Positions 2,856-64,000 of a stretch of DNA of 64,000 bases are shown one piece after another. Each line of letters begins with the position of its first letter. Within the stretch, counting starts at the first letter, position 1. The notes under the pieces are model-generated. The model saw only the letters and a list, made by a program, of their open reading frames with translations, searched no databases and was not told the origin of the DNA. The stretch is from NCBI RefSeq assembly GCF_058153355.1, contig NZ_CM177019.1; one strand, written 5' to 3'. The translations under genes were made by a program, and so were the position numbers.

Positions 2856-2876
2856 GTTTCCTCCCTTCCTTGCTAA

Positions 2877-2902
2877 GCCCTCTCAACCGAGAGGGCTTTT
2901 TC
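2877..2902 (+). terminator. Rho-independent terminator downstream of lysP
   Basis: GC stem gccctctc / gagagggc with loop aacc, followed by tttttc. Confidence 0.6.
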
Positions 2903-2949
2903 AATTCTATTTCCCTGACAAATCATGTGGATATAAATCTTAACATTTG

Positions 2950-2980
2950 GATTGATAATTGTTATCGTTTGCATTATCGT
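2950..2980. promoter_or_regulatory. Fur box in the cirA promoter region
   Basis: gattgataattgttatcgtttgcattatc resembles the Fur consensus GATAATGATAATCATTATC; cirA is a classical Fur-repressed gene. Confidence 0.55.
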
Positions 2981-3147
2981 TACGCCGAAATCAAAAAAGG
3001 CTGACAAATCAGGGGCTGTTCCGGCTTTCTGGGATGATCACCTGCATACAAATAAGTCCACCGCGATGCTGCCGTACGCAAGGGGACGTGAAAAAGATGT
3101 GAGCGATAACCCATTTTATTTTCGTAGTTACCTCATGGAGATATGGA

Positions 3148-6508: not shown

Positions 6509-6540
6509 TGTGAGTTTCCTTTTCTGTGAACCTTATGGCG

Positions 6541-7428: not shown

Positions 7429-7520
7429 TTACCGCTCCTTTTTATCTGCAATGATTATAATAAGATTTCGTAGAAGCTGATGTATCTGACAATCACAGTT
7501 GTGAATGTTAAATAAAAGAT

Positions 7521-7585
7521 AAAAAAGTACTTTTTTTGATACTTTGAAATAATAAGATACTAAAAGTACCATTTTTGATATCTTT
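7521..7585. promoter_or_regulatory. Divergent promoter region of the island with a direct repeat (AAAAGTAC-N6/7-TTGATA)
   Basis: aaaagtactttttttgatac (7523-7542) and aaaagtaccatttttgatatc (7562-7582), two near-identical copies about 40 bp apart in an AT-rich intergenic region between divergent operons. Confidence 0.3.
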
Positions 7586-7617
7586 ACCAGGATATAACGA
7601 ATAACTATTTTTCAACG

Positions 7618-8991
7618 TTGAAGGAATCATTTACAAATATGGAAAGCTGCGTAGATATATTCAAGATAGTTATTGGTCCATCCAGTTCCCGCACAGTCGG
7701 GCCAATGCGTGCGGCTTATAATTTTGTGTCACAATTGAAACAGCGAGAAATGTTACCTTTGTTGCGGAAAATTGATGTCGAACTTTATGGTGCGCTGTCA
7801 TTAAGCCGCAAGTGCCATAATGTTGATGTGGCGATTTATCTCGGTTTGCAAGGACACTTACCTGACAGCGTTGACATTCGCATGGAAATGTCCGCCATCA
7901 GGCGTGCAGAAACTGAGGCGACGCTGGAAGTTATGCCTGGTGTCAACGTCAGTGTATCCATTCTTTCTAATCTACAAGCGCATCCGGGGCACCCTTATGC
8001 GATGACATTTCGTGCCAGAGATGACTGGTTTACACTTTATGAAGAAACCTGGTTTTCTATCGGCGACGGTCAAGTGCTAAAAGCAGGAGAGGCGATTATT
8101 CCTCCATCAGTCACTCCACATCCTTTTGAATTCCAGAACGCAAACGAATTATTAAAACTTTGTCAGCAAAACGGATTATCTGTCGCGGCATTAATGATGA
8201 AAAACGAACTGCACTGCCAGACAGCAGCTTTTTTGCATGACGATCTTCATAAAAAATGGGAAGTAATGAAGGATGCGGTTTATCGCGGGATGCATACAGA
8301 AGGATTACTTCCAGGTCCGTTTCAGGTTAACCGTCGTGCCTGTGCTTTATATAAATCGTTGCAGTCAAAGGGGTTTTCCAATGACTTCCTGACTGCGCTC
8401 AATTGGGTCAATACTTTTGCCATTGCGGTGAGCGAAGAAAATGCTGCGGGTGGACGTGTCGTGACAGCACCCACCAACGGCGCGAGCGGTATTATCCCGG
8501 CTGTACTGTGCTGGTATGATAAATTCATTCACGAGCTTGATACATACTCCGTTACCCGCTTTTTACTGACCGCTGGTGCCATCGCCATTCTGTTCAAAAA
8601 AAATGCCTCTATTCTGGGTTCTGAAGTTGGATGTCAGGGGGAAATAGGTGTTGCCAGTTCAATGGCGGCAGCAGGATTAGCAGAACTTATGGGCGGGTCA
8701 GTGGCTCAGGTACTTAGCGCGGCAGAAATTGCGATGGAGCATCATTTAGGTTTGACCTGTGATCCAGTTGGCGGGCAGGTACAAATTCCTTGTATTGAAC
8801 GAAATGCTATTTCAGCTGTGAAAGCTATCAACGCAACGACGATGGCGTTGAGTCGCATAAGCGAGCCGTGCATTACGCTGGATGAGATAATTTCCGCGAT
8901 GTATGAAACCGGAAAGGATATGAGCGCTAAATACCGTGAAACTTATCATGGCTGTCTGAGCAAATTGCAGCCAAGAAAAAAGGATGCGTAA
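7618..8991 (+). CDS. L-serine dehydratase (L-serine ammonia-lyase, Fe-S type, single-chain SdaA-like)
   Basis: 457-aa ORF; N-terminal [20 protein letters not shown] matches the SdaA/SdaB/TdcG signature; true start may be the Met at 7639. Confidence 0.9.
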
Positions 8992-9382
8992 GATGAAATA
9001 TAATACGATGAATAACAACGAAATTATTTTATCACTGTGCGCTCGCATTAAAGAAACGCGTATCTCATTATCATTGACCCAACAGCAGTTAGCCGAGCGT
9101 GCATTGGTGGGCATAGCAACGGTCAAGCGGATTGAAAAGGGGGGAAGTTTAAATCTTGATACTCTCATTTCTCTTCTGCGCGCGCTGAATAAATTGCAAA
9201 ATCTCGATGCCATATTGTTCGAAGCAGAAATGCGTAATTTCAACGAAAATAGTTCCAGCGGCGAAGGGGCAGGGCGACTACAGGTACGCCAGCAACTGAC
9301 AGATTTAAACCAGAAGTCTCCAGCCCCGCACGCAGATGACCATAATTTTAGTACGGCGCTGGAAAATACCCTCTGCTGGTGA
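8984..9382 (+). CDS. XRE-family helix-turn-helix transcriptional regulator
   Basis: 132-aa ORF with HTH region LSLTQQQLAERALVGIATVKRIEKG; overlaps the 3' end of the serine dehydratase gene, suggesting co-transcription. Confidence 0.7.
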   Translation: MRKMKYNTMNNNEIILSLCARIKETRISLSLTQQQLAERALVGIATVKRIEKGGSLNLDTLISLLRALNKLQNLDAILFEAEMRNFNENSSSGEGAGRLQVRQQLTDLNQKSPAPHADDHNFSTALENTLCW

Positions 9383-10252
<870 letters not shown>

Positions 10253-10476
10253 TCATCATACCGTTTATTCAATGTGCTGTGAGTAACTTTCACTTCCGTA
10301 TATACATAACGATGTTTTAACATCTGCTGATGAAAGGCAGCGGCAATTACAATAATTATCGCTGTGAATACTGGATTATGTGCGCCGCCTCACGCACAAT
10401 AATCAGGCTGTAAATCAGCTTAATAACTTTGCCCCCACGCAGGGCGGAGGCGTCACACCTGCAGGAGAAATCATAA

Positions 10477-20209: not shown

Positions 20210-22245
<2,036 letters not shown>

Positions 22246-49180: not shown

Positions 49181-51172
49181 TTACTCAAGCAAGGTTAATA
49201 ATTGTTCGCAAAGCAAAACGCAGTTATTCATTGCTTCTCCCCGTGCCTCGCCTTCTGTATTACGAAATTGTCCCAACACATGTGCCAGCCGATAAAAACC
49301 CATCGCGGTGAGTTCATTGACCAGCAACTCTGACTGACTAATGGCACTCTGTTCCTGATAGCGCCAGCCATTATGGAGCAGTTGAATAAGCAACGCCTGA
49401 CAGCGCATCAGTAACTGATGAGTGGTAGACGGTACAGGCAGAACGCTGGCAGAAGGTAGCGGTGCCACAGGCGCAGTTTCTGCGTCCAGCGCCCAGGCGC
49501 GGGTTTTTGTCATCATCACCCGTGGTTCCAGTGTCAATTGCCCCTCTACAAAACTGACAAAGCCAGAAACCAGACTCACGGGGTCGTCTGTTTGTTGTAA
49601 CAGAGCTGCCATGCGTTCAACGGCAAAAGGAGAACAGGCAGATGCCGGAAGGGATAACGTCAGCACATTATCGTCACCTTCGCCACTGATTACCTGCGCA
49701 TCCAGTGTCTGCCGACTGCTGTCCCAACCGAGTGAAATGCACTCTTCTACTGGCAGAATAAATAAGTTATCGACCTGGTTAAGCTGTCGTATGGCGGCTG
49801 GCGGACGTTGGCGTAAATATTCCCGCAAAGCCACAATGCCCGGCTGGCGCAGTGGTGCGCTCAACATTTGCCAGGCATCAGGCGACAGCGGAACAACACT
49901 GCTTAAGCGGTTGCGGGTAGCTAATAGCAACTCGCCATCAGCACTGCGTTTTGCTGCTTGTGAAACAATTTGCCCACCCGCCAGCGCGCCAGCCTGAAAA
50001 CTAAACAGCCGCCGTTTTGCCGCTGGAGAGTTATCCTGTTCACTTCTCGGCCAACTGCGCGAAAGATGCAAAATACTGCCGGTGTCGGGATCGGTGAACC
50101 AGATGCGTAAACCATACCGCTCATTATCCTGCCAGCAACGCATACCTAGTGACACCAGCCGCAAATGATCAAGCTTTGCTTCGCCAGCAATGCCTGCGCC
50201 AATGACCGTGCGCCACGGTATGGGCGGTACTTCACCGACACTGTCACGTCGCGCCATCTCTTGTGCACTGTTCAAGCGACTGGTTAACGCCGCAAGCTGG
50301 CACAAGCATTTTCCGGCATGATAGTAGCTGGCGCGGGCGTGGAAGGCATCAACGCTTGCCCGTAGCTGTCGTAGTGATTCACTTACCCAACGCCAGTTGC
50401 AGCGTTCCGCCGCTTGCTGCGCGCGGCTGAAAGCGGCCTCGTAGTGGATTGACGGTTGGCTGATGCCTCCCAGCCATAATGCCTGACTTAATTGCTGAAC
50501 ATATTGACGACATGCTTTACCTTCGTCGCTGGAAAACGGATCGTCAGATGATGTGACGTGTTCACTGTGCATCTGCCAGATCAAATGAGTAAATTCTGCT
50601 TGTTGATTTTTGGCCTCGACGAAGGCCTGCACAGCCAGTGCTACGTGTTCACACAGCGTTCCTTCAATACAATCACAACGGGCGAAACGAATGCTGCTGC
50701 GGGAATAAAAACGCACATCGCTCATCGGTAAGCGGGCAGAGGGAATTTCGCCCGGCGTGCAGAACAACTCAATGGTGATGCCTTTAGCGACCAGCGCCTG
50801 CGCGCGTTTGCGCGTGGTATTGGGCAGGGTAGCCAGTTCTTCCTGCCAGATTGCCGGATCCCACTCTTCTTCTTTTTCCGTAGGCTGGGCGGTGGCACAA
50901 AGTCGTTGATAACTTAACACCAGCATCACGCGATGACGGCACATGCCGCTGGCCCCGCAGCTGCATTGAGCCTCTTTCAGTGCCTGACTGTTCGCCAGCC
51001 GGGTACGGACACCGTCACTGAACGTGGCGATTAAAGCGCCGTTCTCATGGCAGATTTCCGGGACATTGCCATTTTCCAGTTCCTTAAGGCTGCGCTTCAC
51101 AAAACCAGCATTGCTTAACGCCGTCAGGGCCTGCGGTGTCAGTTCTAATAATTCCGGACGTAGTGAATTCAT
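49181..51172 (-). CDS. yehQ: SWIM zinc-finger protein YehQ
   Basis: Start MNSLRPELLELTPQ overlaps the yehP stop (ATGA); two CxCx5CxH SWIM motifs visible (CSCGASGMCRH and CDCIEGTLCEH). Confidence 0.85.
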   Translation of the reverse strand: MNSLRPELLELTPQALTALSNAGFVKRSLKELENGNVPEICHENGALIATFSDGVRTRLANSQALKEAQCSCGASGMCRHRVMLVLSYQRLCATAQPTEKEEEWDPAIWQEELATLPNTTRKRAQALVAKGITIELFCTPGEIPSARLPMSDVRFYSRSSIRFARCDCIEGTLCEHVALAVQAFVEAKNQQAEFTHLIWQMHSEHVTSSDDPFSSDEGKACRQYVQQLSQALWLGGISQPSIHYEAAFSRAQQAAERCNWRWVSESLRQLRASVDAFHARASYYHAGKCLCQLAALTSRLNSAQEMARRDSVGEVPPIPWRTVIGAGIAGEAKLDHLRLVSLGMRCWQDNERYGLRIWFTDPDTGSILHLSRSWPRSEQDNSPAAKRRLFSFQAGALAGGQIVSQAAKRSADGELLLATRNRLSSVVPLSPDAWQMLSAPLRQPGIVALREYLRQRPPAAIRQLNQVDNLFILPVEECISLGWDSSRQTLDAQVISGEGDDNVLTLSLPASACSPFAVERMAALLQQTDDPVSLVSGFVSFVEGQLTLEPRVMMTKTRAWALDAETAPVAPLPSASVLPVPSTTHQLLMRCQALLIQLLHNGWRYQEQSAISQSELLVNELTAMGFYRLAHVLGQFRNTEGEARGEAMNNCVLLCEQLLTLLE

Positions 51173-52305
51173 GACTGAAGATTCTCCGCAAGCCAGGTAG
51201 CCAGTTCGCCCGGCGTCATTGCGGCTATTTGTGCGCCGACATTTACCAGCGCCTGGGCTGTATCGCGGTCGTAGCAAGGTGTTGCGGTGCTATCGAGCGC
51301 TGCCAGTCCCAGCACTTTGATGCCGCTCTGGACACACTTTTTCACCTGATGCGTCAGCAATGATGATGAACCCCCTTCATAAAAATCGCTCACGAGGATG
51401 ATGACGCTTTTCGCTGGTTGTTCAATAAGTTGCCGACCATATTCCACGGCGCTGGCGATATTGGTCCCGCCATCCAGCTGTACTTTCATTAATAACTCTA
51501 CCGGATCGGCAACGTCTGCCGTGAGATCGACGACGCTTGTGTCAAAAGCGACCAGATGGGTGCGGATACCGGGTAACTGCCATAAACAGGCCGCCATCAC
51601 CGCTGAGTGGATCACCGAATCGACCATTGAGCCGCTTTGATCAACCAGTAACACCAGCTGCCATTGTTCGCTATGGCGTTTAATTCGGCTGTTAAAGCGG
51701 GGGGATTCGATATACAACTTGCCGTGTTGCGGGTGCCAGTGTTGCAGGTTGGCGCGCAGAGTACTTTTGAAATCGAAATTACGTGCCAGTGGAATAAATG
51801 AGCGGCGACGGCGATCGCGGACACCTGAAAAAGCCTGACGAACTTCCTTTGCCAGTCGCGCCATAATTTCTTCAACAACCTGGCGCACTATCCGGCGGGC
51901 GGCAGCCAGCACTTCGGGATTCATCAGATGTTTGGTGTGCAAAACGGCGCGTAGCAGGCTTTCAGAAGGCTGCATACGCTCCAGCACGTCGAGATTCGTC
52001 ACCACATCTTCAATGCCGTAGCGCAGTACGGCATCGCTTTCCAGCCGCTCAATCACCCGTTGCGGAAATAGTGTGTGAATACTGTTGATCCACTCAGGGG
52101 TGGTGAGATTTGAGTCACCTAATCCACCGGAGCGTTCACCACGCTGGAGCCGTTCAGGATCGCGCCCATACAGCCACTCCAGCGCGTGGTCTATCTGCCG
52201 GGCATTGTCATCCAGCCCACAAAGCGTCGTTTCTGCCGCTTCGCCAAGAATTAATCGCCAGCGTTGTAGCTCACGAGTGGTCAGAAGATCGTTCAGTTCA
52301 GACAT
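51169..52305 (-). CDS. yehP: von Willebrand factor A (VWA) domain protein YehP
   Basis: 378-aa product from MSELNDLLTTRELQRW; MIDAS motif DxSxS in LVLLVDQSGSM. Confidence 0.85.
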   Translation of the reverse strand: MSELNDLLTTRELQRWRLILGEAAETTLCGLDDNARQIDHALEWLYGRDPERLQRGERSGGLGDSNLTTPEWINSIHTLFPQRVIERLESDAVLRYGIEDVVTNLDVLERMQPSESLLRAVLHTKHLMNPEVLAAARRIVRQVVEEIMARLAKEVRQAFSGVRDRRRRSFIPLARNFDFKSTLRANLQHWHPQHGKLYIESPRFNSRIKRHSEQWQLVLLVDQSGSMVDSVIHSAVMAACLWQLPGIRTHLVAFDTSVVDLTADVADPVELLMKVQLDGGTNIASAVEYGRQLIEQPAKSVIILVSDFYEGGSSSLLTHQVKKCVQSGIKVLGLAALDSTATPCYDRDTAQALVNVGAQIAAMTPGELATWLAENLQS

Positions 52306-54577
52306 GGAAAACTCCCCAGTGTTGCAGTGATGCCAGTGCCTGCTGTTCGAGTTGTTGATGATGTGCAATGGCTTGCGGTGGACAATGCAACGGCATTTGC
52401 AGCGCTGAAACGGGAAGCTGTGCGAGCTGGTAATGCTCAAGCACCTGATGCGCCAGCGTCCCGCGTTCTCGTGGTGGTAGCCAGGCCATCGCCGCGCGTA
52501 AATCGGGCAGGGCGTTAATAAAATCGTCGTCACTCAGTTGATTTAAATGACTACTGAAACCGGCGATAAATGCCGGCTGACAGGCCAGTTGATGGCGGGC
52601 CAGCGCCAGCAAACCGTGCAGCGCCTCGCCAGATTGTGCCGGGGATAATTGTGCCAGCATCGTCAGCGCCGCTTCGGCACTGGCGTTGGGATGTTCCAGA
52701 CGCATCAGCGCGCCAAGGGCCGCACCGCGATCCAGCGCTGGGGCATGAATCGCCTGACTGCGACGTTCCAGTAAGGCTACCGCCGCAGAAAGCGAAACGC
52801 CGGGTAAATTAACGCCGCTATTTAGATCGCGCAGGATATGGCAAAGCGCCTGCCAGCTATGCAGGTGAGCGTGAAACTCCTTCTCATCCGGCCTGCCGTT
52901 GGATTCACATAGCCACAGTGTGCGATCGATAGCCGCGTATAACGTCGTCTGTAATATCTGCGCGCCTTGCATACCGCTGATTTCATCGAGCTGCCACAAG
53001 GCGTAAAGCACTTCCAGCGCCTGGCCCATTTCGGCAAACTGATTTTCCTTGGCGATTAATAATGTGAGTTGTTCCAGTAATTGCTGACTGAAGGACGCCA
53101 GACCCGCTAACGCGGCCTGGCTAAGACATGTGGTGATGCCGCTGATTCCACCCGCGTCCAGCATATCGGCTTCTAATTTATTGCGTGCGGCCTCCTGGAG
53201 TGTGGCACCAAAGCAGGCGGCTTCAATCAATGCCGCATGTTGGCTAAGTGGCTGGGTTAATGTCCAGCGTTCTTCACCGTTGCCCGCCAGCGTCAGTGTA
53301 CTTCCTTGCTCGCGCACAATGCCGGGAATCTCCAGTATTACCAACTGATGTAGCACCTGACTTTGCGCCAGTCCATCGGGGGTAAAGCGATTTAAGGTAA
53401 GCTCCGCCGGAAGAGAGATTCCGGTACGTTCCAGTTCGTAGGTGACATCTTTTGGCAGAGGTGGCTGTGGCGTCGAGGGGGCAAGTTTACCGAATCCGTC
53501 ACCTGCTAATGTGTCTATCAACGTTACCAGTATCGGATCGGTATCGGGATGAATAACGTCGCGATAGCTCCACGGCAACGGCGCATTCAAGGCTTCTTTA
53601 ATCAGCGAGCCTGCTATGGCATCCAGCCAGTCAGTGCGTAACGGTAGTGTATGACCGCGCAACTGTGCCAGCGCCATCGCATGTAAATGAGCGGCAGCCA
53701 TATCCGCGGTTGAAGCAGGCAATTTGTGCTGGCGCAAACGGGTAAGAACCGTTTTTAGTAGTTGTTCACCTGCCTGCTGCAAGCCCCACCGCCAGCACCA
53801 GTTTTGCCAGACCGGGGCAGGCATTCCTGAAAGGTATCCTGCCAGCACATCAAGGCGCTTTTCACTGTATGGCGTGAGATAGCAACCTGTAACGGCATCA
53901 TCCTGTGAGAGCAATTCTGGCTTGTTAATTTCTTGCGGGCATTCGCGCCACATTTTTGCCAGTGCCGGAGCGTGCCAGCCTCCGCAGACGACTAATACGT
54001 CGCCATTATTTTGCTGCATCGCCCATGCAATCCAGCGGGCCATAAAGGCTTCGCGCTGACGATTGAGTGCATCGCCGGAGGCGTCGCCCCGCAGTTGTGC
54101 AAAATAGTGCGCCAGTGCAGAGGGTAATATAGTTTGCTGGCTTTCATCTTCGAACAAGTGATCCCACAAGGTGTCGCTGTTATCCATGCGGGTGGCACGC
54201 AGCAGAAAGGCCTGGCTTTCCTCTTGCATATCAGGCGAATCATCCTCTTCTTCACTTTGTGCCCAGCAAGGCAAATCGATGAAGTAAGTTTGTGCCTGAA
54301 TACGACGTGCGGCTTGTAGCGCCTGCCACTCCGGCGAAAATTCAGCAAATGGCGTCCAGGCACCACGCCCGGGGGCCGCACCGTCCTGATACTGGCAATA
54401 ACTGTAAATAGCTACCGGAAGCTGGTGGGCTAACAACAGTTCGTCTACCCGGTCATTAAAATCAGCCGGGCCTTCAATCAACACGTATCGTGGCCGCTGG
54501 CTTTCGATTAACGATTTCACCAGCCGGGCGCAGGCCGGACTATGATGCCGGATGCCGACAATTAACGGCTCGCTCAT
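52298..54577 (-). CDS. yehM: Large uncharacterised protein YehM
   Basis: 759-aa product from MSEPLIVGIRHHSPACARLV; no recognisable catalytic motif by eye; sits between the AAA+ and VWA genes. Confidence 0.85.
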   Translation of the reverse strand: MSEPLIVGIRHHSPACARLVKSLIESQRPRYVLIEGPADFNDRVDELLLAHQLPVAIYSYCQYQDGAAPGRGAWTPFAEFSPEWQALQAARRIQAQTYFIDLPCWAQSEEEDDSPDMQEESQAFLLRATRMDNSDTLWDHLFEDESQQTILPSALAHYFAQLRGDASGDALNRQREAFMARWIAWAMQQNNGDVLVVCGGWHAPALAKMWRECPQEINKPELLSQDDAVTGCYLTPYSEKRLDVLAGYLSGMPAPVWQNWCWRWGLQQAGEQLLKTVLTRLRQHKLPASTADMAAAHLHAMALAQLRGHTLPLRTDWLDAIAGSLIKEALNAPLPWSYRDVIHPDTDPILVTLIDTLAGDGFGKLAPSTPQPPLPKDVTYELERTGISLPAELTLNRFTPDGLAQSQVLHQLVILEIPGIVREQGSTLTLAGNGEERWTLTQPLSQHAALIEAACFGATLQEAARNKLEADMLDAGGISGITTCLSQAALAGLASFSQQLLEQLTLLIAKENQFAEMGQALEVLYALWQLDEISGMQGAQILQTTLYAAIDRTLWLCESNGRPDEKEFHAHLHSWQALCHILRDLNSGVNLPGVSLSAAVALLERRSQAIHAPALDRGAALGALMRLEHPNASAEAALTMLAQLSPAQSGEALHGLLALARHQLACQPAFIAGFSSHLNQLSDDDFINALPDLRAAMAWLPPRERGTLAHQVLEHYQLAQLPVSALQMPLHCPPQAIAHHQQLEQQALASLQHWGVFHV

Positions 54578-54587
54578 GCATCTTTCC

Positions 54588-55676
54588 TCACGGCAGGCGG
54601 TGGCGAGCTTGATAATAAGCCTGCCAGTGAGCTTCTTTATGTGTAGCGACACGTTGTTCGAAGTAACGGCGCAGACGTGCGCGATCTTCTTCGTTATCTT
54701 TGACGATGGTTCCGGCAATACAGTCCACCAGGTCGGCTGGCTCCCCCGCGCGATTCGCTAAAAACCAGGCGCGGACGCCCACGGCGTGGGCCACGTTAAC
54801 GGCTTCAGCGGTGGACATAATCGCTGTAAGGGTATCCATTGACGTTTTCTTTTCGCCGTTGGCACGCAGATCGCGGAAGGTGCGTACCAGTAACTCAAGT
54901 ACCGCGTCAGGCACTTTATGCGGAATACCGCTATGGGCCAACAAACGCGCCGAAGCACTGGCGACCAGTTCCAGCTCCTGGGCGAAATCCATAATCGGAA
55001 AAACCGTTTCAAAATCGAATCGGCGTTTTAGTGCCGCGCTCATTTCATTAACGCCGCGATCGCGGGTATTGGCGGTGACAATAATATTAAAGCCTTCCCG
55101 CGCATAGAGCTGACTGGCTTCACCAGTGAGTTCCGGCACCGTCATAACCCTGTCAGAAAGCATACCTAACAGACAGTCTTGTACTTCCAGTGGTGTACGC
55201 GTTATCTCTTCAAAACGGACAATTTTGCCGTCGCGCATTCCCTGGTAGAGCGGGGCAGGGACCAGCGCTTCCGTTGACGGACCATGATTAATAAGCAGGG
55301 CGTAGTTCCAGCCGTACTTGATTTGATCTTCGGTGGTAGATGCGCCGCCCTGGATAGTTAACCCAGCATCGCCGCTAATAGCGGTTGCCAGTAATTCAGA
55401 CAGGAGAGATTTTGCGGTGCCAGGTTCCCCCACCAACATCAAACCGCGCCCGGTAGCAAGAGTGACTAACATGCGTTCGACAGCGGAGGGACTAATCACG
55501 ACTTTACGGCTGATATTTTGCGCGCTATCGCCAAGAATAAAAGAACGGGCCGCAGGCAAACTTAACTGCCAACCGGGCGGGCAAGGTGCGTTATCATTTT
55601 GCTTTAATTTTGCCAGTTCATCGGCGTATAACACAGCGGCAGGCGGACGCTGCAGATGATTATTCTGCGGTGACAT
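54588..55676 (-). CDS. yehL: MoxR-family AAA+ ATPase YehL
   Basis: 362-aa ORF with Walker A GEPGTAKS and the AAA+ core; first gene of the yehLMPQ operon. Confidence 0.9.
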   Translation of the reverse strand: MSPQNNHLQRPPAAVLYADELAKLKQNDNAPCPPGWQLSLPAARSFILGDSAQNISRKVVISPSAVERMLVTLATGRGLMLVGEPGTAKSLLSELLATAISGDAGLTIQGGASTTEDQIKYGWNYALLINHGPSTEALVPAPLYQGMRDGKIVRFEEITRTPLEVQDCLLGMLSDRVMTVPELTGEASQLYAREGFNIIVTANTRDRGVNEMSAALKRRFDFETVFPIMDFAQELELVASASARLLAHSGIPHKVPDAVLELLVRTFRDLRANGEKKTSMDTLTAIMSTAEAVNVAHAVGVRAWFLANRAGEPADLVDCIAGTIVKDNEEDRARLRRYFEQRVATHKEAHWQAYYQARHRLP

Positions 55677-55786: not shown

Positions 55787-55868
55787 TAAAAAAACCTGCT
55801 GGTGAGGCAGGTTCTTTTATTTACTACTTTGACGATAACTTGCTGATTGTGCAACATTTCGTACCAAC
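55787..55868 (-). ncRNA. orzO: Candidate antisense sRNA antitoxin (OrzO-like) transcribed divergently from the toxin gene
   Basis: Minus-strand -10 TATAAT (plus coordinates 55875-55880) with a TTGCAA -35 at 55898-55903; predicted transcript starts at the reverse complement of an 18-nt repeat (55851-55868) and ends at a strong terminator (55794-55822). Symbol is from memory of the EHEC locus and is not verified. Confidence 0.4.
55794..55822 (-). terminator. Rho-independent terminator (strong on the minus strand, weaker bidirectional)
   Basis: acctgc-tggtgagg-gcaggt hairpin flanked by aaataaaaaa on one side and tcttttattt on the other. Confidence 0.6.
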
Positions 55869-55897
55869 GAATGAATTATAACCATATCCACATCCCG

Positions 55898-55925
55898 TTG
55901 CAATTCACTAAGCGAGATTTATAAT
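55898..55925 (+). promoter_or_regulatory. Sigma70-type promoter for the small toxin mRNA (long 5' UTR)
   Basis: -35 ttgcaa (55898-55903), 16-bp spacer, -10 tataat (55920-55925); predicted start about 174 nt upstream of the toxin ATG. Confidence 0.4.
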
Positions 55926-56106
55926 CGTGCCCGTTGGGAGGTTGTGCCGGATTGAACCAATTTCAAGTCCTGGCTGCCGGACGGGGGGTGCCGCAGGTGG
56001 TGCCCTGATCCGGAGAGCAACGTTTCGTACCAACATACGTAAACCAGTATCGACAGGCAGTGTAAGGGTAAGGTGCTGGTGTTGCGCTCCTTAATAAGGA
56101 GAGCGG

Positions 56107-56196
56107 ATGGACACGCTGACACAAAAGTCAACCGTGCTCATTGCCGTACTGGAGTTATTAGTGGCTCTGTTGCGGTTGATTGATTTGTTGAAGTAA
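56107..56196 (+). CDS. zorO: Type I toxin-like small hydrophobic peptide (29 aa), ZorO-like
   Basis: ORF MDTLTQKSTVLIAVLELLVALLRLIDLLK preceded by SD aaggagagcgg-ATG; amphipathic single helix resembling TisB/DinQ-class toxins. Symbol assigned from memory, moderate certainty. Confidence 0.55.
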   Translation: MDTLTQKSTVLIAVLELLVALLRLIDLLK

Positions 56197-56249: not shown

Positions 56250-56570
56250 CTATTTTTCTATTTGTTGGATGAATATATTTTGTAGTTCACGATTAAAAAT
56301 TGCTATTACAGTTTTAGGTGATTCACCTCGTAATTTACGCTCATCAATAAATTCATCTCTTATATAAATCAACGCATCATTTATTAGCGGGTCGACATCT
56401 TCTCGATCACGTTGATGAAATGTTGGATGTAGCCGGAATCGCTCCAACCGGTAGACGGAACCAGTAAATAATTCAGAGCATTTATGGATCTCAAGTCTGA
56501 AGGAAAACGGATCTTCAGGTACAGGGACTTCATAATCATAAGTAGCGACCAGCTCTTTTTGCACGATCAT
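56250..56570 (-). CDS. yehK: Small uncharacterised protein YehK
   Basis: 106-aa ORF immediately downstream of yehI on the same strand. Confidence 0.8.
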   Translation of the reverse strand: MIVQKELVATYDYEVPVPEDPFSFRLEIHKCSELFTGSVYRLERFRLHPTFHQRDREDVDPLINDALIYIRDEFIDERKLRGESPKTVIAIFNRELQNIFIQQIEK

Positions 56571-56630: not shown

Positions 56631-59600
56631 TTAATGGAAAATGACGTCAGGTGCGCTTAACGCTTCACTCAAATCAAACGTATCGAGTTCGGCAAAAGTG
56701 ACAGATTTATTGTCACGGTACACTCGAAGAGAACGGAAGCTCATTAGCGCTTTGCTATCAGCACTGTAGTGGTTAAAACCGGGTGAAAACTTAAGGACCA
56801 GCCGATACTCGCCCAGGTCATAGACACATGCGTCCTCAAAACCTGACTCCCAGCCTTTGTATCGCATTCCCATAAGTTGCCCAACGGTTGCGGATTTACC
56901 TTCCCAGCGAGTCAGGCTGTTACTGGCTGACTCGTCAGGTGTGAGCAGCACTGTGCGCCGCATCAACTGGCGAAAAGGCGGCATAATTTCGTAATCGGCA
57001 AAAACCTGTGCAAATTCACTGCGCATTTCTGCTGTCATTTCTAACGGGTGGGCAATGCCAATCAGAGCATCCGCAGGCAGGTCAATTGGCTCATCTTGTG
57101 CGTTGCAGAACTCCCCCTCAGCGGCCACGCGAAAGGCGTTGAGTAAACGACGCGGTTCATTTGCCGGATAAACCGCCCATATTAATCGCTGAGTAACCAG
57201 GCGAGTAAAGGGATGATTAACAAACAGAGAATGAAAATCTGCCAGCGACCAGCGTCGGGTGGTGCGTAGGGCAGTTTCAAGACGCGGGAGCAGGTTTTTG
57301 CTCACCTGAGTGGCATCTTTTTTTAGCCCTTTTAGTCGGGCCAGTGCCTCGGGTGCTTTCAGCTGATCGTCATCGGCGCGCAACCGGGGAACACTTTTCT
57401 GGCGAACGTTTTGCTGATCAAAGATAACCGGGTTGAGGTTTTCATCGAAGCGAACGGTAAACTGCCGGGGTCCAAAATCAAATATCAACGCCTGCGGATC
57501 ATCCAGGCCCAGTGTTGGGACTAATCTGTCCGCTAACTCTTCCTGGCTTAGTCCACGATTTTCTGCGACCACCTGAAGAAATTCCGCCGCGTTATCACGT
57601 AAGGGACGGGATTTCGCCCGTTGCGATATATGATGCAGCTGTATCAGCGCCATATCATTATTCATCAGGGTAAGTATGTTCAGGCCACTGACGGCGCGGG
57701 CAGATTTGCCTTCCTGTGGCCAGGCGAGGATCTGTGTTGTCAGATCCCGAGCCGTGCTTTCGTCACCAAAGAGACTTAACGCCAAAAAAGCCCAGTTGTC
57801 TTTTGCGGGGGCGCCAGCCTGTTGCCAGGCGGTGAAGAGATCCCAGGCAAAAGCGGCCAGCGTTTGTGGCTGGCAGAACGTTTTCAGTTGTTCCAGCCCA
57901 CAATAAAAACGTCCGCCCTGGGTAAAGCGCAGCATTTCGCCGATAATTTCCAGAGCATCATCAGTAACATGTTGATTATTCGTGATAATTCTCGGTCTGG
58001 ACCACATTGTCGGATGCCAGAAATCAGGGGCTTTGGGAATGCGTGCCGGGTAAATGTCCATTGGACCCTGTTTAAGTAATTGCTCCAGGGCAGGCCATAC
58101 ATCTGTATGCTGCCAGCGGTTTGCCACGGTTTGCAGTAATTCGCCATGCCCTTGTTCATACAGTAAACGCAGAGCGCTGAGTGCCGCTTCGCTGTTATCG
58201 CCAGACCTGGCAAAGATTAATGGGATCAGCGCCGTAGCCGTATGCTCCGGCCATTGTAAAATCCACTGGCGAGCCAGATTACGCTGGCCCGCAAAACGAT
58301 GCCAGACGCGGGCAACGGGCAGCGCCAGTTCTGTTGCGCCAAAATGAATCAGCAGCGGAAATATCTCTTTGGGATGTCGGGCAAAGGCGGTGATTAATCC
58401 GGGCAAAGCATCGGTACCCAGGACACTTAACAGATATTCTACCCCGGTGTAATGAAAATCAGCCGCGACAATTTGTTGCCAGCACGATACCGCCATTTCG
58501 CGCGGCATTTGCGCGATAAGATACAGGTTCCATACTCCCCAACGCTTTTCATCAGTGTAATTAAATTTGCGTTGGAAAGTTCGCCACCCCTCCATCAACG
58601 CAACACTATCTTGTGCCAGTAATGCGCTGGCGGCCTCTTCCCGGTAGTGTTTATTTTCATTCTGTTTTGCCTGATAATTGAGCAATCTTCCTACTGAAGT
58701 ATGTGTCTCTAGTTGATCGGTATCCAGAGCATCCAATTGTCCTTTGAGAATAAACTCATTAAACTTCCACCTGTGATCTTCAAAACCTAATTCCCGCAAG
58801 AAGGTATCCGCCCCTCTGTTAGCAAGACGTTCGTCAAAAGACATGGCGCTAAAATGGTCAATTGCAGTTTGCTGTTCCGGCGTCCAGTGTTTATTCGGCG
58901 ACCTGTACGCTTGCGGTACAAGCGTAAGTTCAGGTAGCGAAAAGTGAGTTATGGAAGCCTTTTTCCTGCCACGCCACGGTGGTGAAACGAGGATTTCAGG
59001 CAGACTACTGTTATCGGTGCTATCAATAACCGGTTTTGGCGAAGCCGATAAATAACTATTCACCACTGCCCGGGCTTGAGTACTTAACGACGGGATCACC
59101 TCTTCTGCCAGTTGTGGCTGCGATGCCATCAGCGTTTGTAACAGCGTACGCCAGTATTCATCACGTGCTTTTTGCTGTGCAGGCAGCTTTTTGTCTTCGA
59201 TGATAGGATAACCAGGGCGCGTAGGGGGGGCTTTTAACGCCAGTAGTTCTGCCAGTGCGGCGAGCGTCGCATGGGGAAAGTTTTTACTGTATTTAGCCAC
59301 ACGCTGCAGGCTGGGTTTGTTTTTATCGGCAACTAACAGCAAGATGCGAATAACTTGCGGATGGTTAATTTGTACCAGCAGGCTACCGCAATCTTCTTTA
59401 TGGGCATACATCGCGAGGCGTGGAACGGCTGCAATTCCTTGTTCGCGCAAAAGGGCGGCGCAGGCCGCGTAGCCGAAGTGGTTTTCATGCGACATGTAGC
59501 TGGCTTCGCGATCGCTAAATATATCCTGGCTCCAGTAGCGTTCGAGTTTTCTCACCGCTCTGGGGTCATTAGCAACAACTTTTAACCACTCCTTAGAATG

Positions 59601-60287
59601 AAAATGAGTCCGCGGGCATTCAAGGCCTACCAACTCATTGGCGATTTCTGGTTTCTCCGGGAGGATGAGTGCAATAAAAGGACGGCGAACTTGGGGTAGT
59701 CCTGGCAGTGCGGCAATGAGTTTGTCGGCGCAACGCTGCCAGCAGCTTTCCTCTGCCAGAGAGAGAGGCTTACGCAGTCGGAGATCGAATTCGTTATAGG
59801 TTTCTGAGCGATAACCATAACCATAGCCATAGTCCTCCTTCTGATACTGCAATGTTACTACCAGAGGATCGTTCTCATAACACCGCGCAATAAACTGGCG
59901 TGCAATCACCACCTCAGTCGCATATTCCAGCCCCTCTTGTTGGACGATTTCGTCGAGCAACTGTTGGCTGTCATTTTGCGCGATACAGGCTAGCGCCGCC
60001 ATTGTCCGGGCCGGAATTGAGGGTTTGTGCTCGCCGATCAAGTTGATGGCTTGCGTAATGGCCGACTGCCACTCCAGTGAAAAATTTTCATAACGCCAGA
60101 CAATGTTTTTTTTCTTCTCAGCAATGTGTAGCAATTTATCACCCAGTGTCTGGATGAGGCTTTCAGTGATAACAGGCACCGGTTCGCCCGGCCAATTGCG
60201 ATGGCTGAGTGGTGTTTTGCCTTTTTTATATTTCAGTTCCAGTTGGGCGTTATCCGCCAGCCACGGTAATTCCTTGTCCATGCTCAT
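56631..60287 (-). CDS. yehI: Giant DUF4132-family protein YehI
   Basis: 1218-aa ORF; paralogous to the adjacent molR product (shared blocks such as HLSLAEESCWQRCADKLIAALP...ALILPEKPEIANE). Confidence 0.9.
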   Translation of the reverse strand: MSMDKELPWLADNAQLELKYKKGKTPLSHRNWPGEPVPVITESLIQTLGDKLLHIAEKKKNIVWRYENFSLEWQSAITQAINLIGEHKPSIPARTMAALACIAQNDSQQLLDEIVQQEGLEYATEVVIARQFIARCYENDPLVVTLQYQKEDYGYGYGYRSETYNEFDLRLRKPLSLAEESCWQRCADKLIAALPGLPQVRRPFIALILPEKPEIANELVGLECPRTHFHSKEWLKVVANDPRAVRKLERYWSQDIFSDREASYMSHENHFGYAACAALLREQGIAAVPRLAMYAHKEDCGSLLVQINHPQVIRILLLVADKNKPSLQRVAKYSKNFPHATLAALAELLALKAPPTRPGYPIIEDKKLPAQQKARDEYWRTLLQTLMASQPQLAEEVIPSLSTQARAVVNSYLSASPKPVIDSTDNSSLPEILVSPPWRGRKKASITHFSLPELTLVPQAYRSPNKHWTPEQQTAIDHFSAMSFDERLANRGADTFLRELGFEDHRWKFNEFILKGQLDALDTDQLETHTSVGRLLNYQAKQNENKHYREEAASALLAQDSVALMEGWRTFQRKFNYTDEKRWGVWNLYLIAQMPREMAVSCWQQIVAADFHYTGVEYLLSVLGTDALPGLITAFARHPKEIFPLLIHFGATELALPVARVWHRFAGQRNLARQWILQWPEHTATALIPLIFARSGDNSEAALSALRLLYEQGHGELLQTVANRWQHTDVWPALEQLLKQGPMDIYPARIPKAPDFWHPTMWSRPRIITNNQHVTDDALEIIGEMLRFTQGGRFYCGLEQLKTFCQPQTLAAFAWDLFTAWQQAGAPAKDNWAFLALSLFGDESTARDLTTQILAWPQEGKSARAVSGLNILTLMNNDMALIQLHHISQRAKSRPLRDNAAEFLQVVAENRGLSQEELADRLVPTLGLDDPQALIFDFGPRQFTVRFDENLNPVIFDQQNVRQKSVPRLRADDDQLKAPEALARLKGLKKDATQVSKNLLPRLETALRTTRRWSLADFHSLFVNHPFTRLVTQRLIWAVYPANEPRRLLNAFRVAAEGEFCNAQDEPIDLPADALIGIAHPLEMTAEMRSEFAQVFADYEIMPPFRQLMRRTVLLTPDESASNSLTRWEGKSATVGQLMGMRYKGWESGFEDACVYDLGEYRLVLKFSPGFNHYSADSKALMSFRSLRVYRDNKSVTFAELDTFDLSEALSAPDVIFH

Positions 60288-60290
60288 TCC

Positions 60291-63200
60291 TTATTCAAAC
60301 AGGGCTTCGATGTCGTTAATTAACTCGCTAGCGGTGATGTCATCGAGTGCGGAGAACTGCGCTTCCTGTGTTGAATTAATCCCCCAGCCATAGCTTTCTG
60401 CTTTGCCTTCCCATAGCCACAGCTTGCTTAAGAGTTGCTCGGCACTGAGTTCGGCTGGCGACATACCAACTGCAAATCCTTCATCGATTTCCATGATTAA
60501 TGACCAGCGGCCCAGAGGTTTGATCATCCAGCCGATCCAGCCACCGTCCTGCGGTTCACCACGCATCCAGCCTTTATTCGCCAGCCCCATTACCCGACCG
60601 CTCGGGCATTTTCTGCCTGCCCAGCGGGTCAATTCGCTGGCATTGCGCTCGGTTTCTGTCAGGGCGTAACTGTTACGGTCGAGCTGGCGGAACGGCGGTA
60701 GCAGTTCGTAGTCGGCAAAAAGCTGACCAAAGGCGGCAGCATCCGTGGGTGATATTTCCAGAACGTGAGGAATGCCAACAGAGATATCGCCTTCCGGCAG
60801 GGTGAAAAGATCATCGTCAGCGGTGCTGTAGCTGTTATCTTCCGCCACACGGAAGCACGCCAGTAACTGGTTGTCTGCGCTATAAATGCCCCAAATCAGA
60901 CGGCGGGTTAAGTGGCAGACCAGCGGATGCTCAACCAGAAAGAGCTGAAAGTTTTCTGGCGACCAGCGGCGGCGCAGGCACATGGCGGATTCCAGCCTTG
61001 CCACCTGCTGGGCGGCAACGGTACGCGCATCTTTTTTCAGCAGTTTGTAGCGGTTAACTGCATCGTTCGCTTGAGTTTCATCATCGCTTTTGTTCGGTTT
61101 AGGCAAGTCTTTCAGGCGGCTGCCGGAAGCATCACGCACAAACGGTTTTAAGGTTTCATCAAAGCTGACGGTGAACTGCCGTGGCCCGAAATCCAGCAGC
61201 AGCGAACCGTTATCATCCAGACCGAGATCCGGTGCTAACCGGTCTTCAAGCTCCGCCACCGTGAGTTCGCGGCTCTCGGCAATGTCGGCAATTTTTTCTT
61301 TTGCCCGCTCCTGTAATGCTTTGAATTTCAGTTTCTGGGCGATGCCGTTAAGCTGCATCAGGGCGATATCACTACCGATAGCAGCGAGAATATCCAGCCC
61401 GACGGTGGCGCGTTTATGCTGGGATTCACCAGGCCAGGCGCGAATCAAAGGCGTCAGTTTGCGGGCGGTATCATCGTTGCCGAGAACACCTAACGCAGTG
61501 AACGCCCAGCTTTCTTTCGACGGTGCGCCAGCGGTCTGCCAGGCGGTAAACAGATCCCAGGCAAATTCAGCCAGTGAGTCGGCGGTACAGGCATCTTTCA
61601 CCTGCAATAACCCCGCATACAGAGCCTCTTCCTGAGGGAAGCGGAGCATTTCACCGAGGTGGAGGAGGGCGTTATCTGGCAGTGATTGGGCGTTTGCTTT
61701 TAATACCGGGCGTGTCCAGAGCGATGGCTGATAAAAGGCCGGAAGTGTCGGGATTTTAGTCGGGTGATTATCTAAGGGATCGAGCGCAAGTAGAGCGTTC
61801 ACCGCATCGGTTACTTCCGGCTGGTTATAACGCTGGGCGATTTCTTGCAGTAATGACGGATAACCACTTTCAATCAACATACGTAAGGCGGCGCGGGCGT
61901 TATCCTGGGCTTCACCAGCTTTGCCGAGTGCCGCAGGCAACAGGCCGATAATGGCATGTTCCGGATATTTCAGCAGCCAGGTGCGGGCGTCTTGTCGTAG
62001 AGTTTTGAGTTTGTTAAAGGCGCGGGCGACGGCAGGAGCCAGTTCCGTTGCGGCAAAATAATTAGCAACCGCAAAACCTTCTTGAGGGTAGCGTGAAAAC
62101 GAGTGTAGAAAACCACTCATACCTGCCAGTCGCAAATAAAGCATGACAGGTTTTACCGCGGTATGCGGCTCTTTGCTGAGAAACTCCCATAGTTTAATCG
62201 CTGTTTGCATAGGTAAAAAGGGAAGTGAGTTGAGATGCCACTCCCCCTGATACGGTGCATGGTGGGCTTTAAACATTTGGATGAGTGTAGCGAAGTCCTC
62301 ACGTTCCCATGCGTCAATTGCCGAGTCAGAAGCGCCGATATATTTATATGTGTCAAAATCCCAGCGGCGATACCCCAGCGAGTAAAGGAAATCTTTAGCA
62401 CCTTCACCTGGCTTATGCGATTCCCAGTCCCAATGAGTTTGAAACTCTTTTGCTTCTGTGTCGGTTATTGTGCATATGGATTTGAGTTTGAGCGGTGCTA
62501 AATCCAACACCGGAATCGTCGATTTTTTCTTTTTCGAAAGCCAGGGAGGTAAGACTAATACGGCTGGCAGTAGAGCGGCGCAGGCATGGTTTGACGGTTG
62601 TATCAGTTGTTGCTGGCATGATTTCAGCACTTCAACTGCGGCTGTCGAGAGCCAGGGAGTGACCTGTTCTGCCAGTGCCGGTTGCGAGATAAGCATCGTC
62701 ATTAGCATAATGCGCCAAGTATTCTCTTCTTTTTGCGCAAGAAGTTCCGCCAGTGCCGCCAGTGCTGCGTGTGGGAACGCAGCGCAAGCTTTCGTCATCC
62801 GATCGTGACAGCGTTTAGTTTGCCCGGCTACACGTATGAGCAGTGTTAATGCGAACGGATGATTGATATGACGCAATACATCTGCGCAGTAGTCACTTGC
62901 GGCATAGGGAGCAAATCTGGGCAGGGCTGCAACACCTTGCTCCTGTAATACGGTGGCTGACAATATCGCACCACAATAGTAATCATCAAAAATGGCATAT
63001 GGCTCGTGATATTTTTCTAATGAGGCAAGAATGTGCTCATCAGTCGCCACTATTTTTAGCCACTCAAGCGAGGGTAATTTTTTTTTCCCCAGTAGACGCT
63101 GGGCAATTTCATGTGCAATTTCTGGTTTTTCGGGTAATAACAAAGCAATTAATGGTTGCCGCCATTCTGGAATATGTGGAATTGCGGCAATAAGTTTTTG

Positions 63201-64000
63201 TGCACATTTTTGCCAGAGAGACTCTTCCGCCAGTGATAAATGTTTCCGTAGGCGTAATTCAAAACTGGAATATTGCTGCAGGTTATCAGGTGCAATACCA
63301 GACGGCAGAATAATAATGGTATTATTCGCATAATCCCATTCAATATCAATCTGTTGAAGATGTATTACTACATCAGTAGCATATTCCAGGCCACCTTCCT
63401 GAACGAGCTGATCCATAACATCCTCACGCTCTTTATATCTCGTGCACTTCAGTTCAAGTGCCGTGAGTACAGCCATTACTGGTGATGGTAACTGTGTTGT
63501 TTTCAGGCAGTCGATCTGACTGAGCGCCTGGGAGATGGCGTTTTGCCATTCTAAAGAACAGGCGCTGAAGTCAAATGTGGCTGTTTTATTATCCCGTTGC
63601 AACACGCTACAGGCTAAGCGGCGTAACTGGGTCAATTCGTCTGCTTGCTGAACAGGAACTCCGGGAAAGCGGCGATGGCTTAACGTGGTGTGTACAACTT
63701 CGGGCGGAAAAACGACAGCAATATCTTTCGCCAGCCACGGTAAAACATCATCTGTATTTTTGTCAGCCACACGGGCTTCTGCTACGCAAAAGGGTTGTTC
63801 CTGAATAATGGTGGATAAGGCCGCTACCTTGAGAGAATCCGTTACCGTTTGGGAAGGTTGCAAAGAATTATCCTTCGCTTGCCCCACATACCCCTTCTTC
63901 ACCTTCTCCGCAATCAGCCTCAGTTCCGCTTTTTCCGCCGCCGCAGCATCAGCAAAGCTTTTTACCTGGCTTTGCCCGTTGGTACTGACTTTGCCCCAAC
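60291..64000 (-). CDS. molR: Giant DUF4132-family protein MolR (YehH/YehG/YehF equivalent), intact frame, 5' end beyond window
   Basis: Uninterrupted reading frame from 60291 to the window edge, with no in-frame stop in 63903-64000; paralogue of yehI. Confidence 0.8.
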   Translation of the reverse strand, partial: WGKVSTNGQSQVKSFADAAAAEKAELRLIAEKVKKGYVGQAKDNSLQPSQTVTDSLKVAALSTIIQEQPFCVAEARVADKNTDDVLPWLAKDIAVVFPPEVVHTTLSHRRFPGVPVQQADELTQLRRLACSVLQRDNKTATFDFSACSLEWQNAISQALSQIDCLKTTQLPSPVMAVLTALELKCTRYKEREDVMDQLVQEGGLEYATDVVIHLQQIDIEWDYANNTIIILPSGIAPDNLQQYSSFELRLRKHLSLAEESLWQKCAQKLIAAIPHIPEWRQPLIALLLPEKPEIAHEIAQRLLGKKKLPSLEWLKIVATDEHILASLEKYHEPYAIFDDYYCGAILSATVLQEQGVAALPRFAPYAASDYCADVLRHINHPFALTLLIRVAGQTKRCHDRMTKACAAFPHAALAALAELLAQKEENTWRIMLMTMLISQPALAEQVTPWLSTAAVEVLKSCQQQLIQPSNHACAALLPAVLVLPPWLSKKKKSTIPVLDLAPLKLKSICTITDTEAKEFQTHWDWESHKPGEGAKDFLYSLGYRRWDFDTYKYIGASDSAIDAWEREDFATLIQMFKAHHAPYQGEWHLNSLPFLPMQTAIKLWEFLSKEPHTAVKPVMLYLRLAGMSGFLHSFSRYPQEGFAVANYFAATELAPAVARAFNKLKTLRQDARTWLLKYPEHAIIGLLPAALGKAGEAQDNARAALRMLIESGYPSLLQEIAQRYNQPEVTDAVNALLALDPLDNHPTKIPTLPAFYQPSLWTRPVLKANAQSLPDNALLHLGEMLRFPQEEALYAGLLQVKDACTADSLAEFAWDLFTAWQTAGAPSKESWAFTALGVLGNDDTARKLTPLIRAWPGESQHKRATVGLDILAAIGSDIALMQLNGIAQKLKFKALQERAKEKIADIAESRELTVAELEDRLAPDLGLDDNGSLLLDFGPRQFTVSFDETLKPFVRDASGSRLKDLPKPNKSDDETQANDAVNRYKLLKKDARTVAAQQVARLESAMCLRRRWSPENFQLFLVEHPLVCHLTRRLIWGIYSADNQLLACFRVAEDNSYSTADDDLFTLPEGDISVGIPHVLEISPTDAAAFGQLFADYELLPPFRQLDRNSYALTETERNASELTRWAGRKCPSGRVMGLANKGWMRGEPQDGGWIGWMIKPLGRWSLIMEIDEGFAVGMSPAELSAEQLLSKLWLWEGKAESYGWGINSTQEAQFSALDDITASELINDIEALFE

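Follow-up and report, generated by a model that had tools for sequence, protein, structure and literature searches.

The yehLMPQ genes of Escherichia: a conserved MoxR-VWA operon that appears to be part of a larger five-family module with DUF4132 proteins

Introduction

What the yehLMPQ genes do, and whether these four genes make up the whole of the system to which they belong, are the questions raised by a locus which is present in almost every Escherichia coli genome. We analyzed a window of 64,000 nucleotides (contig NZ_CM177019.1 of RefSeq assembly GCF_058153355.1), this term denoting the whole stretch of DNA. The window is Escherichia DNA: a 7.7-kb stretch of it shows 94% identity to most E. 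coli genomes and 97% to a few. The locus was found in 5403 of the 5426 complete E. coli genomes, where it is chromosomal and occurs in a single copy per genome.

An earlier note on this DNA had described a conserved operon of four genes encoding a MoxR ATPase, a protein with no recognizable motif, a VWA protein and a SWIM zinc-finger protein, with no established function, and had suggested that it might be a machine targeting nucleic acids or complexes. The conserved MoxR-VWA-SWIM architecture was confirmed, and a literature search by gene names and DUF numbers yielded no functional study. On three points the interpretation had to be changed: the targeting of nucleic acids was not borne out, the limit of four genes proved to be too narrow, and a hydrolase-like domain in YehM had been missed.

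The operon and the MoxR subfamily have already been catalogued, and their existence as such was known. The searchable literature seems to hold no report of the five-family unit described below, of the pattern consisting of a YehL-YehM-YehP core with YehQ and DUF4132 proteins as accessories, or of the TIKI/TraB-like, catalytic-looking domain of DUF5682. With about 6.5 kb, or over 14 kb if the DUF4132 genes are included, this is among the largest wholly uncharacterized conserved gene blocks of the E. coli core genome. The probable active site of YehM and the true five-family unit make this long-standing blank directly testable, while holding little surprise for the specialist.

Extent of the module

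The four genes lie head to tail on the same strand, at the following positions of the window:

54588-55676, minus strand: yehL, 362 amino acids, MoxR-family AAA+ ATPase (YehL subfamily)
52298-54577, minus strand: yehM, 759 amino acids, DUF5682
51169-52305, minus strand: yehP, 378 amino acids, CoxE-type VWA protein
49181-51172, minus strand: yehQ, 663 amino acids, double-SWIM protein

These open reading frames (ORFs) are exactly those reported previously, and their boundaries match the RefSeq annotation of close E. coli relatives. To define the unit to which they belong, one genome per species was scanned with a YehM profile; at least 545 loci were confirmed, 80 of which were kept for analysis, and their ORFs were scored against the E. 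coli proteins and the YehM and YehQ profiles. The order consisting of one to three (WGR-)DUF4132 genes followed by yehL, yehM, yehP and yehQ recurs in 80 species of Proteobacteria, Myxococcota, Actinobacteria and Acidobacteriota: it was seen in gamma- and beta-proteobacteria, in Myxococcota, in many Actinobacteria and in one metagenome-assembled genome (MAG) of the Thermoanaerobaculia. The DUF4132 gene is located downstream instead of upstream in two Burkholderia loci. In a Variovorax contig, the precomputed Pfam assignments read WGR+DUF4132, a small ORF, AAA_5, DUF5682, VWA_CoxE and a 751-amino-acid protein. A DUF4132 protein at least 700 amino acids long is encoded within 10 kb in 72 of the 80 loci; 50 of these 72 have at least one DUF4132 protein bearing a recognizable WGR N-terminus, and where a locus has a single copy, this is nearly always of the WGR form.

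A start codon suitably placed for a 4-nucleotide overlap with the upstream stop codon is available at 57 of the 78 yehM-yehP junctions, 59 of the 76 yehP-yehQ junctions and 21 of the 70 DUF4132-yehL junctions, which indicates that the five families are organized as a single, tightly coupled operon in many taxa. In the window itself, the ATGA overlap that had been attributed to every junction occurs only between yehP and yehQ: yehM and yehP overlap by 8 nucleotides (ATGTCTGA), and yehL and yehM are separated by a 10-nucleotide spacer with a Shine-Dalgarno-like GAGGAAAG. No sixth conserved family was found by all-against-all clustering of the ORFs of 83 loci, the clusters being blurred by shadow ORFs in the high-GC genomes.

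Judged by this gene order, the functional unit is a five-family module comprising (WGR-)DUF4132, YehL, YehM, YehP and YehQ, and is thus larger than yehLMPQ. The link with yehI and molR, the co-occurrence of which the earlier note had proposed to check, holds across phyla. The two DUF4132 genes of the window are:

56631-60287, minus strand: yehI, ORF of 1218 amino acids, Pfam DUF4132 (8e-47) at the C-terminus
60291-64000, minus strand: molR-like WGR + DUF4132 paralogue, its frame open to base 64000 and cut by the end of the window

The molR-like paralogue reads the WGR motif (WGKVSTNGQSQVKSF...KKGYV) and is 37% identical to YehI; for its homologue in a close E. coli relative, the annotation reads "WGR and DUF4132 domain-containing protein".

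In two Myxococcota-type MAGs and one gut contig, the locus consists of yehL, yehM and yehP only, with neither yehQ nor a DUF4132 gene, and YehQ is present without DUF4132 in one complete locus. Because of the three loci with the triad alone, YehQ and DUF4132 can be taken to be an accessory pair which largely come and go together around a YehL-YehM-YehP core.

A distant YehL-YehM-YehP triad (YehM 25% identical) was observed at positions 253-4879 of MT835988.1 (L084), an unverified 14.2-kb record from human feces labeled "Bacteriophage sp.". It adjoins a RarA-like ATPase and a polysaccharide deacetylase, and includes neither YehQ nor DUF4132; the contig looks bacterial rather than viral.

Apparent gene fusions (clusters P0001, P0004, P0011, P0190, and P0153) were rejected as artefacts of assembly or gene calling, since their identity to E. 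coli genes amounts to 93-95% or their junctions resemble frameshifts.

The YehM protein

YehM matches Pfam DUF5682 (E = 5e-96) and no other Pfam family. It had been said to have no recognizable motif; this is not so, as it carries invariant GxxH...E...GxxH elements. A confident AlphaFold model consists of an N-terminal alpha/beta domain resembling those of TIKI, TraB, ChaN, and EreA, followed by a HEAT/ARM-like helical solenoid. The domain and the conserved elements are located as follows:

53858-54577, minus strand: N-terminal domain of YehM, amino acids 1-240
54545-54556, minus strand: G8xxH11
54473-54475, minus strand: E35
53972-53983, minus strand: G199xxH202

The TIKI/TraB/PrgY family takes its name partly from TraB, and the structures matching the YehM model include the following members of this superfamily, listed with their scores:

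Match 1: 2g5g, ChaN, 9.6
Match 2: 8bqs_DQ, TraB-family protein, 9.4
Match 11: 5t09, HopBA1, 8.3
Match 16: 2rad, Bacillus cereus "succinoglycan biosynthesis" (erythromycin-esterase-like) protein, 8.0

HEAT/ARM proteins, among them symplekin, TAF6, FANCI, and importins, account for the other matches. Residues 1-240 of YehM have the parallel beta-sheet core which is shared with ChaN, HopBA1, Bcr135, and TraB. ChaN (2G5G), HopBA1 (5T09), and Bcr135 (PDB 3B55) have been named as members of the TIKI superfamily, and in the RRSP endopeptidase, cleavage of the peptide bond requires the 2His/2Glu site of this superfamily (PMC6254334). At the sequence level, YehM has the two GxxH motifs and the glutamate. 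G8xxH11, E35, and G199xxH202 each lie at the end of a predicted beta-strand, are invariant from E. coli to Actinobacteria in homologues down to 29-36% identity, and occur in the same order as in the TraB-family protein YbaP of E. coli (G38xxH41, E67, G249xxH252). The N-terminal domain of YehM therefore probably holds a hydrolase site of the TIKI/TraB type.

Truncated forms of E. coli YehM make up many large clusters (P0018, P0032, P0035, and P0052), including a 508-amino-acid form with 613 members on 173 contigs and a 424-amino-acid form with 1108 members. The size of these clusters suggests that yehM may have been pseudogenized repeatedly in some E. coli or Shigella lineages.

The YehL, YehP, and YehQ proteins

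The Walker A, MIDAS and SWIM motifs described previously were all verified by translation, and they lie far outside what chance would produce. Together with the Walker B motif, they are located at:

55407-55430, minus strand: YehL Walker A, GEPGTAKS, amino acids 83-90
55197-55220, minus strand: YehL Walker B, VRFEEITR, amino acids 153-160
51628-51642, minus strand: YehP MIDAS, DQSGS, amino acids 222-226, completed by T281 and D307
50933-50965, minus strand: YehQ SWIM1, CSCGASGMCRH, amino acids 70-80
50645-50677, minus strand: YehQ SWIM2, CDCIEGTLCEH, amino acids 166-176

YehL is assigned to Pfam AAA_5 (E = 1e-33), and this AAA_5-type domain with its Walker A and Walker B motifs has the features of the MoxR proteins, as does the presence of a nearby VWA gene: yehP is the second gene downstream of yehL in this operon, and yehL and yehP occur together in nearly all of the 80 loci. 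The match of YehL to the Pfam family bpMoxR is E = 0.002 over 52 residues, and its best sequence matches in the PDB are the AAA domains of midasin. One of the seven MoxR subfamilies is named after YehL, and K-12 has YehL as a second MoxR protein in addition to RavA (PMC3893208). YehP belongs to Pfam VWA_CoxE (E = 2e-71).

The Walker A, Walker B, and sensor-1 TAN motifs of YehL and several of its arginines are at least 95% conserved (78-80 loci), and so are all five MIDAS ligands of YehP (D222, S224, S226, T281, and D307; 78 loci). The identity of YehL between Escherichia and its orthologues in Actinobacteria, Myxococcota, and Acidobacteriota amounts to 63-66%, which is comparable to that of many housekeeping proteins, and that of YehP across phyla to 55-62%. 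Such conservation of the motif residues and of the overall sequences is consistent with an active machine under strong constraint.

YehQ shows two weak matches to Pfam SWIM (E = 0.0036 and 0.24). It contains two CxCx5CxH motifs in the context of the SWIM signature (CxCxnCxH within beta-beta-beta-alpha), since in the AlphaFold2 model each motif comes after strands and the CxH marks the start of a helix. SWIM1 is invariant in 48 of 48 homologues, and SWIM2 is retained in 42 of them. The fingers are followed by a four-helix bundle, a beta-rich middle domain (amino acids ~331-560) and a C-terminal helical bundle. YehQ is thus a predicted zinc-finger protein.

Comparison with known systems

No solved structure, defense-system model or paper assigning a function to the yehLMPQ module was found. 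The literature search yielded no paper mentioning DUF5682, and those found for DUF4132 mention the family in passing and establish no function; YehL appears in the literature only as the namesake of its MoxR subfamily (PMC3893208). Among all PDB chains, no meaningful match was obtained with the YehM, YehQ, YehP, and YehI sequences or with the YehM and YehQ profiles. None of the families in PADLOC-DB v2 matched any of the six proteins (E <= 0.01), and the NCBIfam search gave only far-sub-threshold matches to GvpN, MadB, McrB, and a chelatase subunit.

The closest parallels are the MoxR-VWA pairs RavA-ViaA, CbbQ-CbbO, NorQ-NorD, and CoxD-CoxE, in which an AAA_5/MoxR ATPase gene likewise lies near a VWA gene with an intact MIDAS, YehP itself belonging to the CoxE VWA family. 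The yeh module differs from them in that no client enzyme is encoded nearby, and none of the characterized pairs has DUF5682, double-SWIM or WGR-DUF4132 partners. Midasin/Rea1, the eukaryotic AAA_5 motor of ribosome assembly with a C-terminal MIDAS domain, shares the logic of an AAA_5 ring combined with a client-gripping MIDAS domain; it is, however, a single chain of 4700-4900 residues with six fused AAA modules, whereas the yeh components are encoded by separate genes. The MoxR-vWA-YebA operon, for which a role in ATP-dependent degradation has been predicted, provides a precedent for a three-part logic with a MoxR motor, a vWA protein recruiting the substrate and a third protein resembling a hydrolase (PMC3495828). 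YebA is a transglutaminase-like peptidase, whereas YehM has a TIKI/TraB-like fold; no membrane segments were seen in YehM, and the yeh module contains SWIM and DUF4132 proteins in addition. In comparison with the TIKI/TraB/PrgY/erythromycin-esterase/ChaN superfamily, which includes RRSP and HopBA1, the putative domain of YehM differs in being fused to a HEAT-like solenoid of about 500 amino acids within a MoxR operon, and no profile similarity to TraB/YbaP was detected with a shallow alignment.

The vWA-MoxR ternary conflict systems share with the yeh module the pair formed by MoxR and a CoxE-like vWA protein, extra large components, and a bias toward large-genome filamentous or social bacteria (PMC7159879). 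The yeh proteins have no VMAP, iSTAND, beta-propeller, FtsH or effector Pfam domains, and neither SWIM nor WGR is mentioned in the description of these systems (PMC7159879). As regards the class I chelatases (CobNST/BchHID), YehI shows only DUF4132 and no CobN/BchH subunit was found. Judged from its domains, the yeh module does not belong to the ternary conflict systems, the chelatases or the known defense systems.

Proposed mechanism

The hydrolase-like domain of YehM shifts the most likely mechanism from pure chaperone activity to remodeling combined with processing. We tentatively propose, at less than even confidence, that the module may be a MoxR-VWA machine for remodeling and processing which either acts on the WGR-DUF4132 proteins or is steered by them. 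YehL would form an ATP-hydrolyzing MoxR ring supplying the driving force. YehP would dock on this ring and grip an acidic residue or peptide of the client via its MIDAS metal site, as in midasin, CbbQO, and RavA-ViaA. YehM would provide a HEAT-like scaffold, and its N-terminal domain of the TIKI/TraB/erythromycin-esterase type would cleave or trim the client held or unfolded by YehL-YehP. YehQ might be a zinc-finger adaptor coupling this triad to the large WGR-DUF4132 proteins, which would be either the clients or the sensors of a trigger that might be nucleic acid or DNA damage. The weaker claim that an active MoxR-VWA remodeling machine is functionally tied to DUF4132 proteins is likely to be correct.

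Several points weigh against this model. The Escherichia DUF4132 genes lie about 570 nucleotides away from yehL, and the gap holds terminators and a toxin-antitoxin locus. In Deinococcus, DUF4132 and WGR proteins occur and are regulated on their own (PMC8533742). In the case of YehM, alignment of the N-terminal domain with YbaP/TraB (hhalign) gave no signal (probability 0.8%), this test being weak since the YbaP alignment was shallow (at least 65% identity). The loci had been retrieved with two patterns, one of them RHHSPACA, and the invariance of this motif among them is partly by construction. Lastly, ChaN, the top match of YehM, is a heme-binding member of the superfamily and not a catalytic one.

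A bolder extension of the model, which is quite unlikely, would be that of a split bacterial "midasin" combined with a protease of the TIKI type, forming a new class of regulated ATP-dependent protein-processing systems in which WGR-DUF4132 proteins would sense damaged or foreign nucleic acid and would then be activated or destroyed by YehLMPQ. If true, a stress or immune switch would have gone unrecognized in E. coli because of the crippled K-12 copy described below.

Alternative explanations

The yeh module might be an anti-phage or biological-conflict system of the vWA-MoxR type, in which WGR-DUF4132 proteins would be diversifying sensors of invader nucleic acids, the MoxR-VWA pair would set the activation threshold and YehM would be the effector hydrolase. 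Several observations favor this explanation, unlikely as it is. The tandem DUF4132 paralogues (one to three per locus) diverge fast, with 37% identity between neighbors vs 63-90% for YehL between taxa. The distribution is patchy: no orthologue from Salmonella, Citrobacter or Enterobacter was present among the best matches listed, and the module occurs in Klebsiella, Erwinia, Serratia, beta-proteobacteria, Actinobacteria, and Myxococcota. The high identity across phyla suggests horizontal transfer, and large-genome filamentous or social bacteria are enriched, as in the ternary systems (PMC7159879). H-NS binds upstream of yehL, and yehL and yehM are up-regulated in an hns/stpA mutant, i.e., these genes are silenced by H-NS (PMC3686432), and the locus is a hotspot for transposon insertion, toxin-antitoxin insertion, and deletion. 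Against this explanation stand the fixed chromosomal site in nearly all the complete E. coli genomes and the near absence of the module from plasmids (39 of 72,556 records, several of which are chromosome-sized) and, essentially, from phages. YehL and YehP are also much more conserved than typical defense genes, no PADLOC model matches any of the six proteins, and the third components which define the ternary systems are lacking, as are classical effector domains.

A phage origin had been considered in view of PHROG families 30700, 33984, 31592, 29006, 36295, and 20839, and was rejected: these families are small and near-identical to YehM, YehP, YehQ, YehK, and YehI. The PHROG YehM is split at residues 509/517, exactly like a truncated E. 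coli yehM, and the families probably stem from a chromosomal region mis-called as prophage.

Also unlikely is a pure chaperone or assembly factor, in which the N-terminal domain of YehM would be a non-catalytic binder of ligands or peptides like ChaN, and the complex would remodel or assemble DUF4132 proteins or some other complex, as RavA-ViaA and CbbQO do. Most of the characterized MoxR-VWA pairs are in fact maturation factors, and YehM is mostly a HEAT-like scaffold. What speaks for catalysis instead is that both GxxH histidines and Glu35 are invariant from E. coli to Actinobacteria, as expected of an active site, and ChaN-type binding is not known to need this His/Glu triad.

It is very unlikely that the module is a DNA-damage or nucleoid-associated remodeler, in which the WGR (as in PARP) and SWIM domains would bind DNA lesions and the MoxR motor would strip or process protein on DNA. 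In K-12, a LexA-like box (CTGGATAAAATTACAG) lies 10 nucleotides upstream of yehF/molR, the first WGR/DUF4132 gene (L002, positions 6450-6465, outside the window). E. coli molR has been cited as a member of the LexA regulon, and mitomycin C induces one DUF4132 and one WGR protein of Deinococcus radiodurans via DdrO/IrrE (PMC8533742). However, other gamma- and beta-proteobacterial loci show no conserved box of this kind ahead of the module, and scanning the window for LexA boxes gave one chance match inside yehQ and none near the genes. The OB-fold matches are weak and partial, and the binding of nucleic acids by these SWIM and WGR domains is an assumption. The nucleic-acid targeting favored in the earlier note comes down to these domain names, OB-fold matches and the single unconserved K-12 box, and was not upheld.

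Lastly, a machine inserting metals or cofactors (YehL resembling CobS/CoxD, YehP resembling CobT/CoxE, the DUF4132 protein of about 1200 amino acids taking the place of CobN/BchH, and the ChaN-like domain binding a tetrapyrrole or metal) would fit the old name molR ("molybdate metabolism regulator"), the VWA_CoxE assignment of YehP, the weak NCBIfam matches of YehP to a putative cobaltochelatase subunit and of YehL to GvpN, the match of YehL to a PHROG family labeled "porphyrin biosynthesis" and the ChaN fold of YehM, but is very unlikely, given that the cobaltochelatase match scores 15.8 bits vs a cut-off of 779, that YehI shows no similarity to CobN/BchH, that no metalloenzyme or cofactor-pathway gene is conserved beside the module (83 loci), and that molybdenum genes are not co-responsive with the Deinococcus homologues (PMC8533742).

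Regulation and instability of the locus in Escherichia

The guanine-cytosine (GC) content of yehLMPQ is 53.6-55.3% vs 51.2% in the whole window. The genes are flanked by AT-rich intergenic regions (43-45% GC), which coincide with the published H-NS binding upstream of yehL.

The yeh region is structurally unstable. A blaCTX-M-15 transposon has been inserted into the "metG/DUF4132/yeh region" of an ST131 sublineage (PMC9334617), and a deletion in a Shigella sonnei lineage takes out yehM, yehL, and zorO (PMC12795559). In K-12 MG1655, yehQ has an in-frame TAG (amber) at codon 615 (L002, positions 20943-20945), where the window has a glutamate codon and continues to 663 amino acids, and molR is split into yehF and the pseudogene yehH (L002, positions 6475-10270). 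Because of the stop codon in yehQ and the broken molR, the K-12 copy of the yeh system is probably crippled. This may explain the lack of clues from genome-wide screens in K-12 and matters for the reading of K-12 knockouts; it argues for working in a strain with an intact locus, in which the H-NS repression has been lifted.

The region between the DUF4132 genes and yehL carries the following features:

56250-56570, minus strand: yehK, 106 amino acids, no Pfam match, GC content 37% vs 51% in the window
55788-55861, minus strand: OrzO small RNA, Rfam RF02083, 90.6 bits
56107-56196, plus strand: ZorO ORF (MDTLTQKSTVLIAVLELLVALLRLIDLLK), 29 amino acids

Among the 80 loci, yehK was detected in those of Escherichia only. 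Its membership of the module is doubtful, and it looks like a small gene that may have been acquired separately.

The intergenic region between yehK and yehL carries a ZorO-OrzO type I toxin-antitoxin locus (positions 55788-56196 of the window), in which a repeat on the same strand, ttggtacgaaa[c/t]gttgc, matches what is expected of the region where the small RNA pairs with the 5' untranslated region. In K-12, which does not have ZorO-OrzO, this gap measures 306 nucleotides vs 573 nucleotides in the window.

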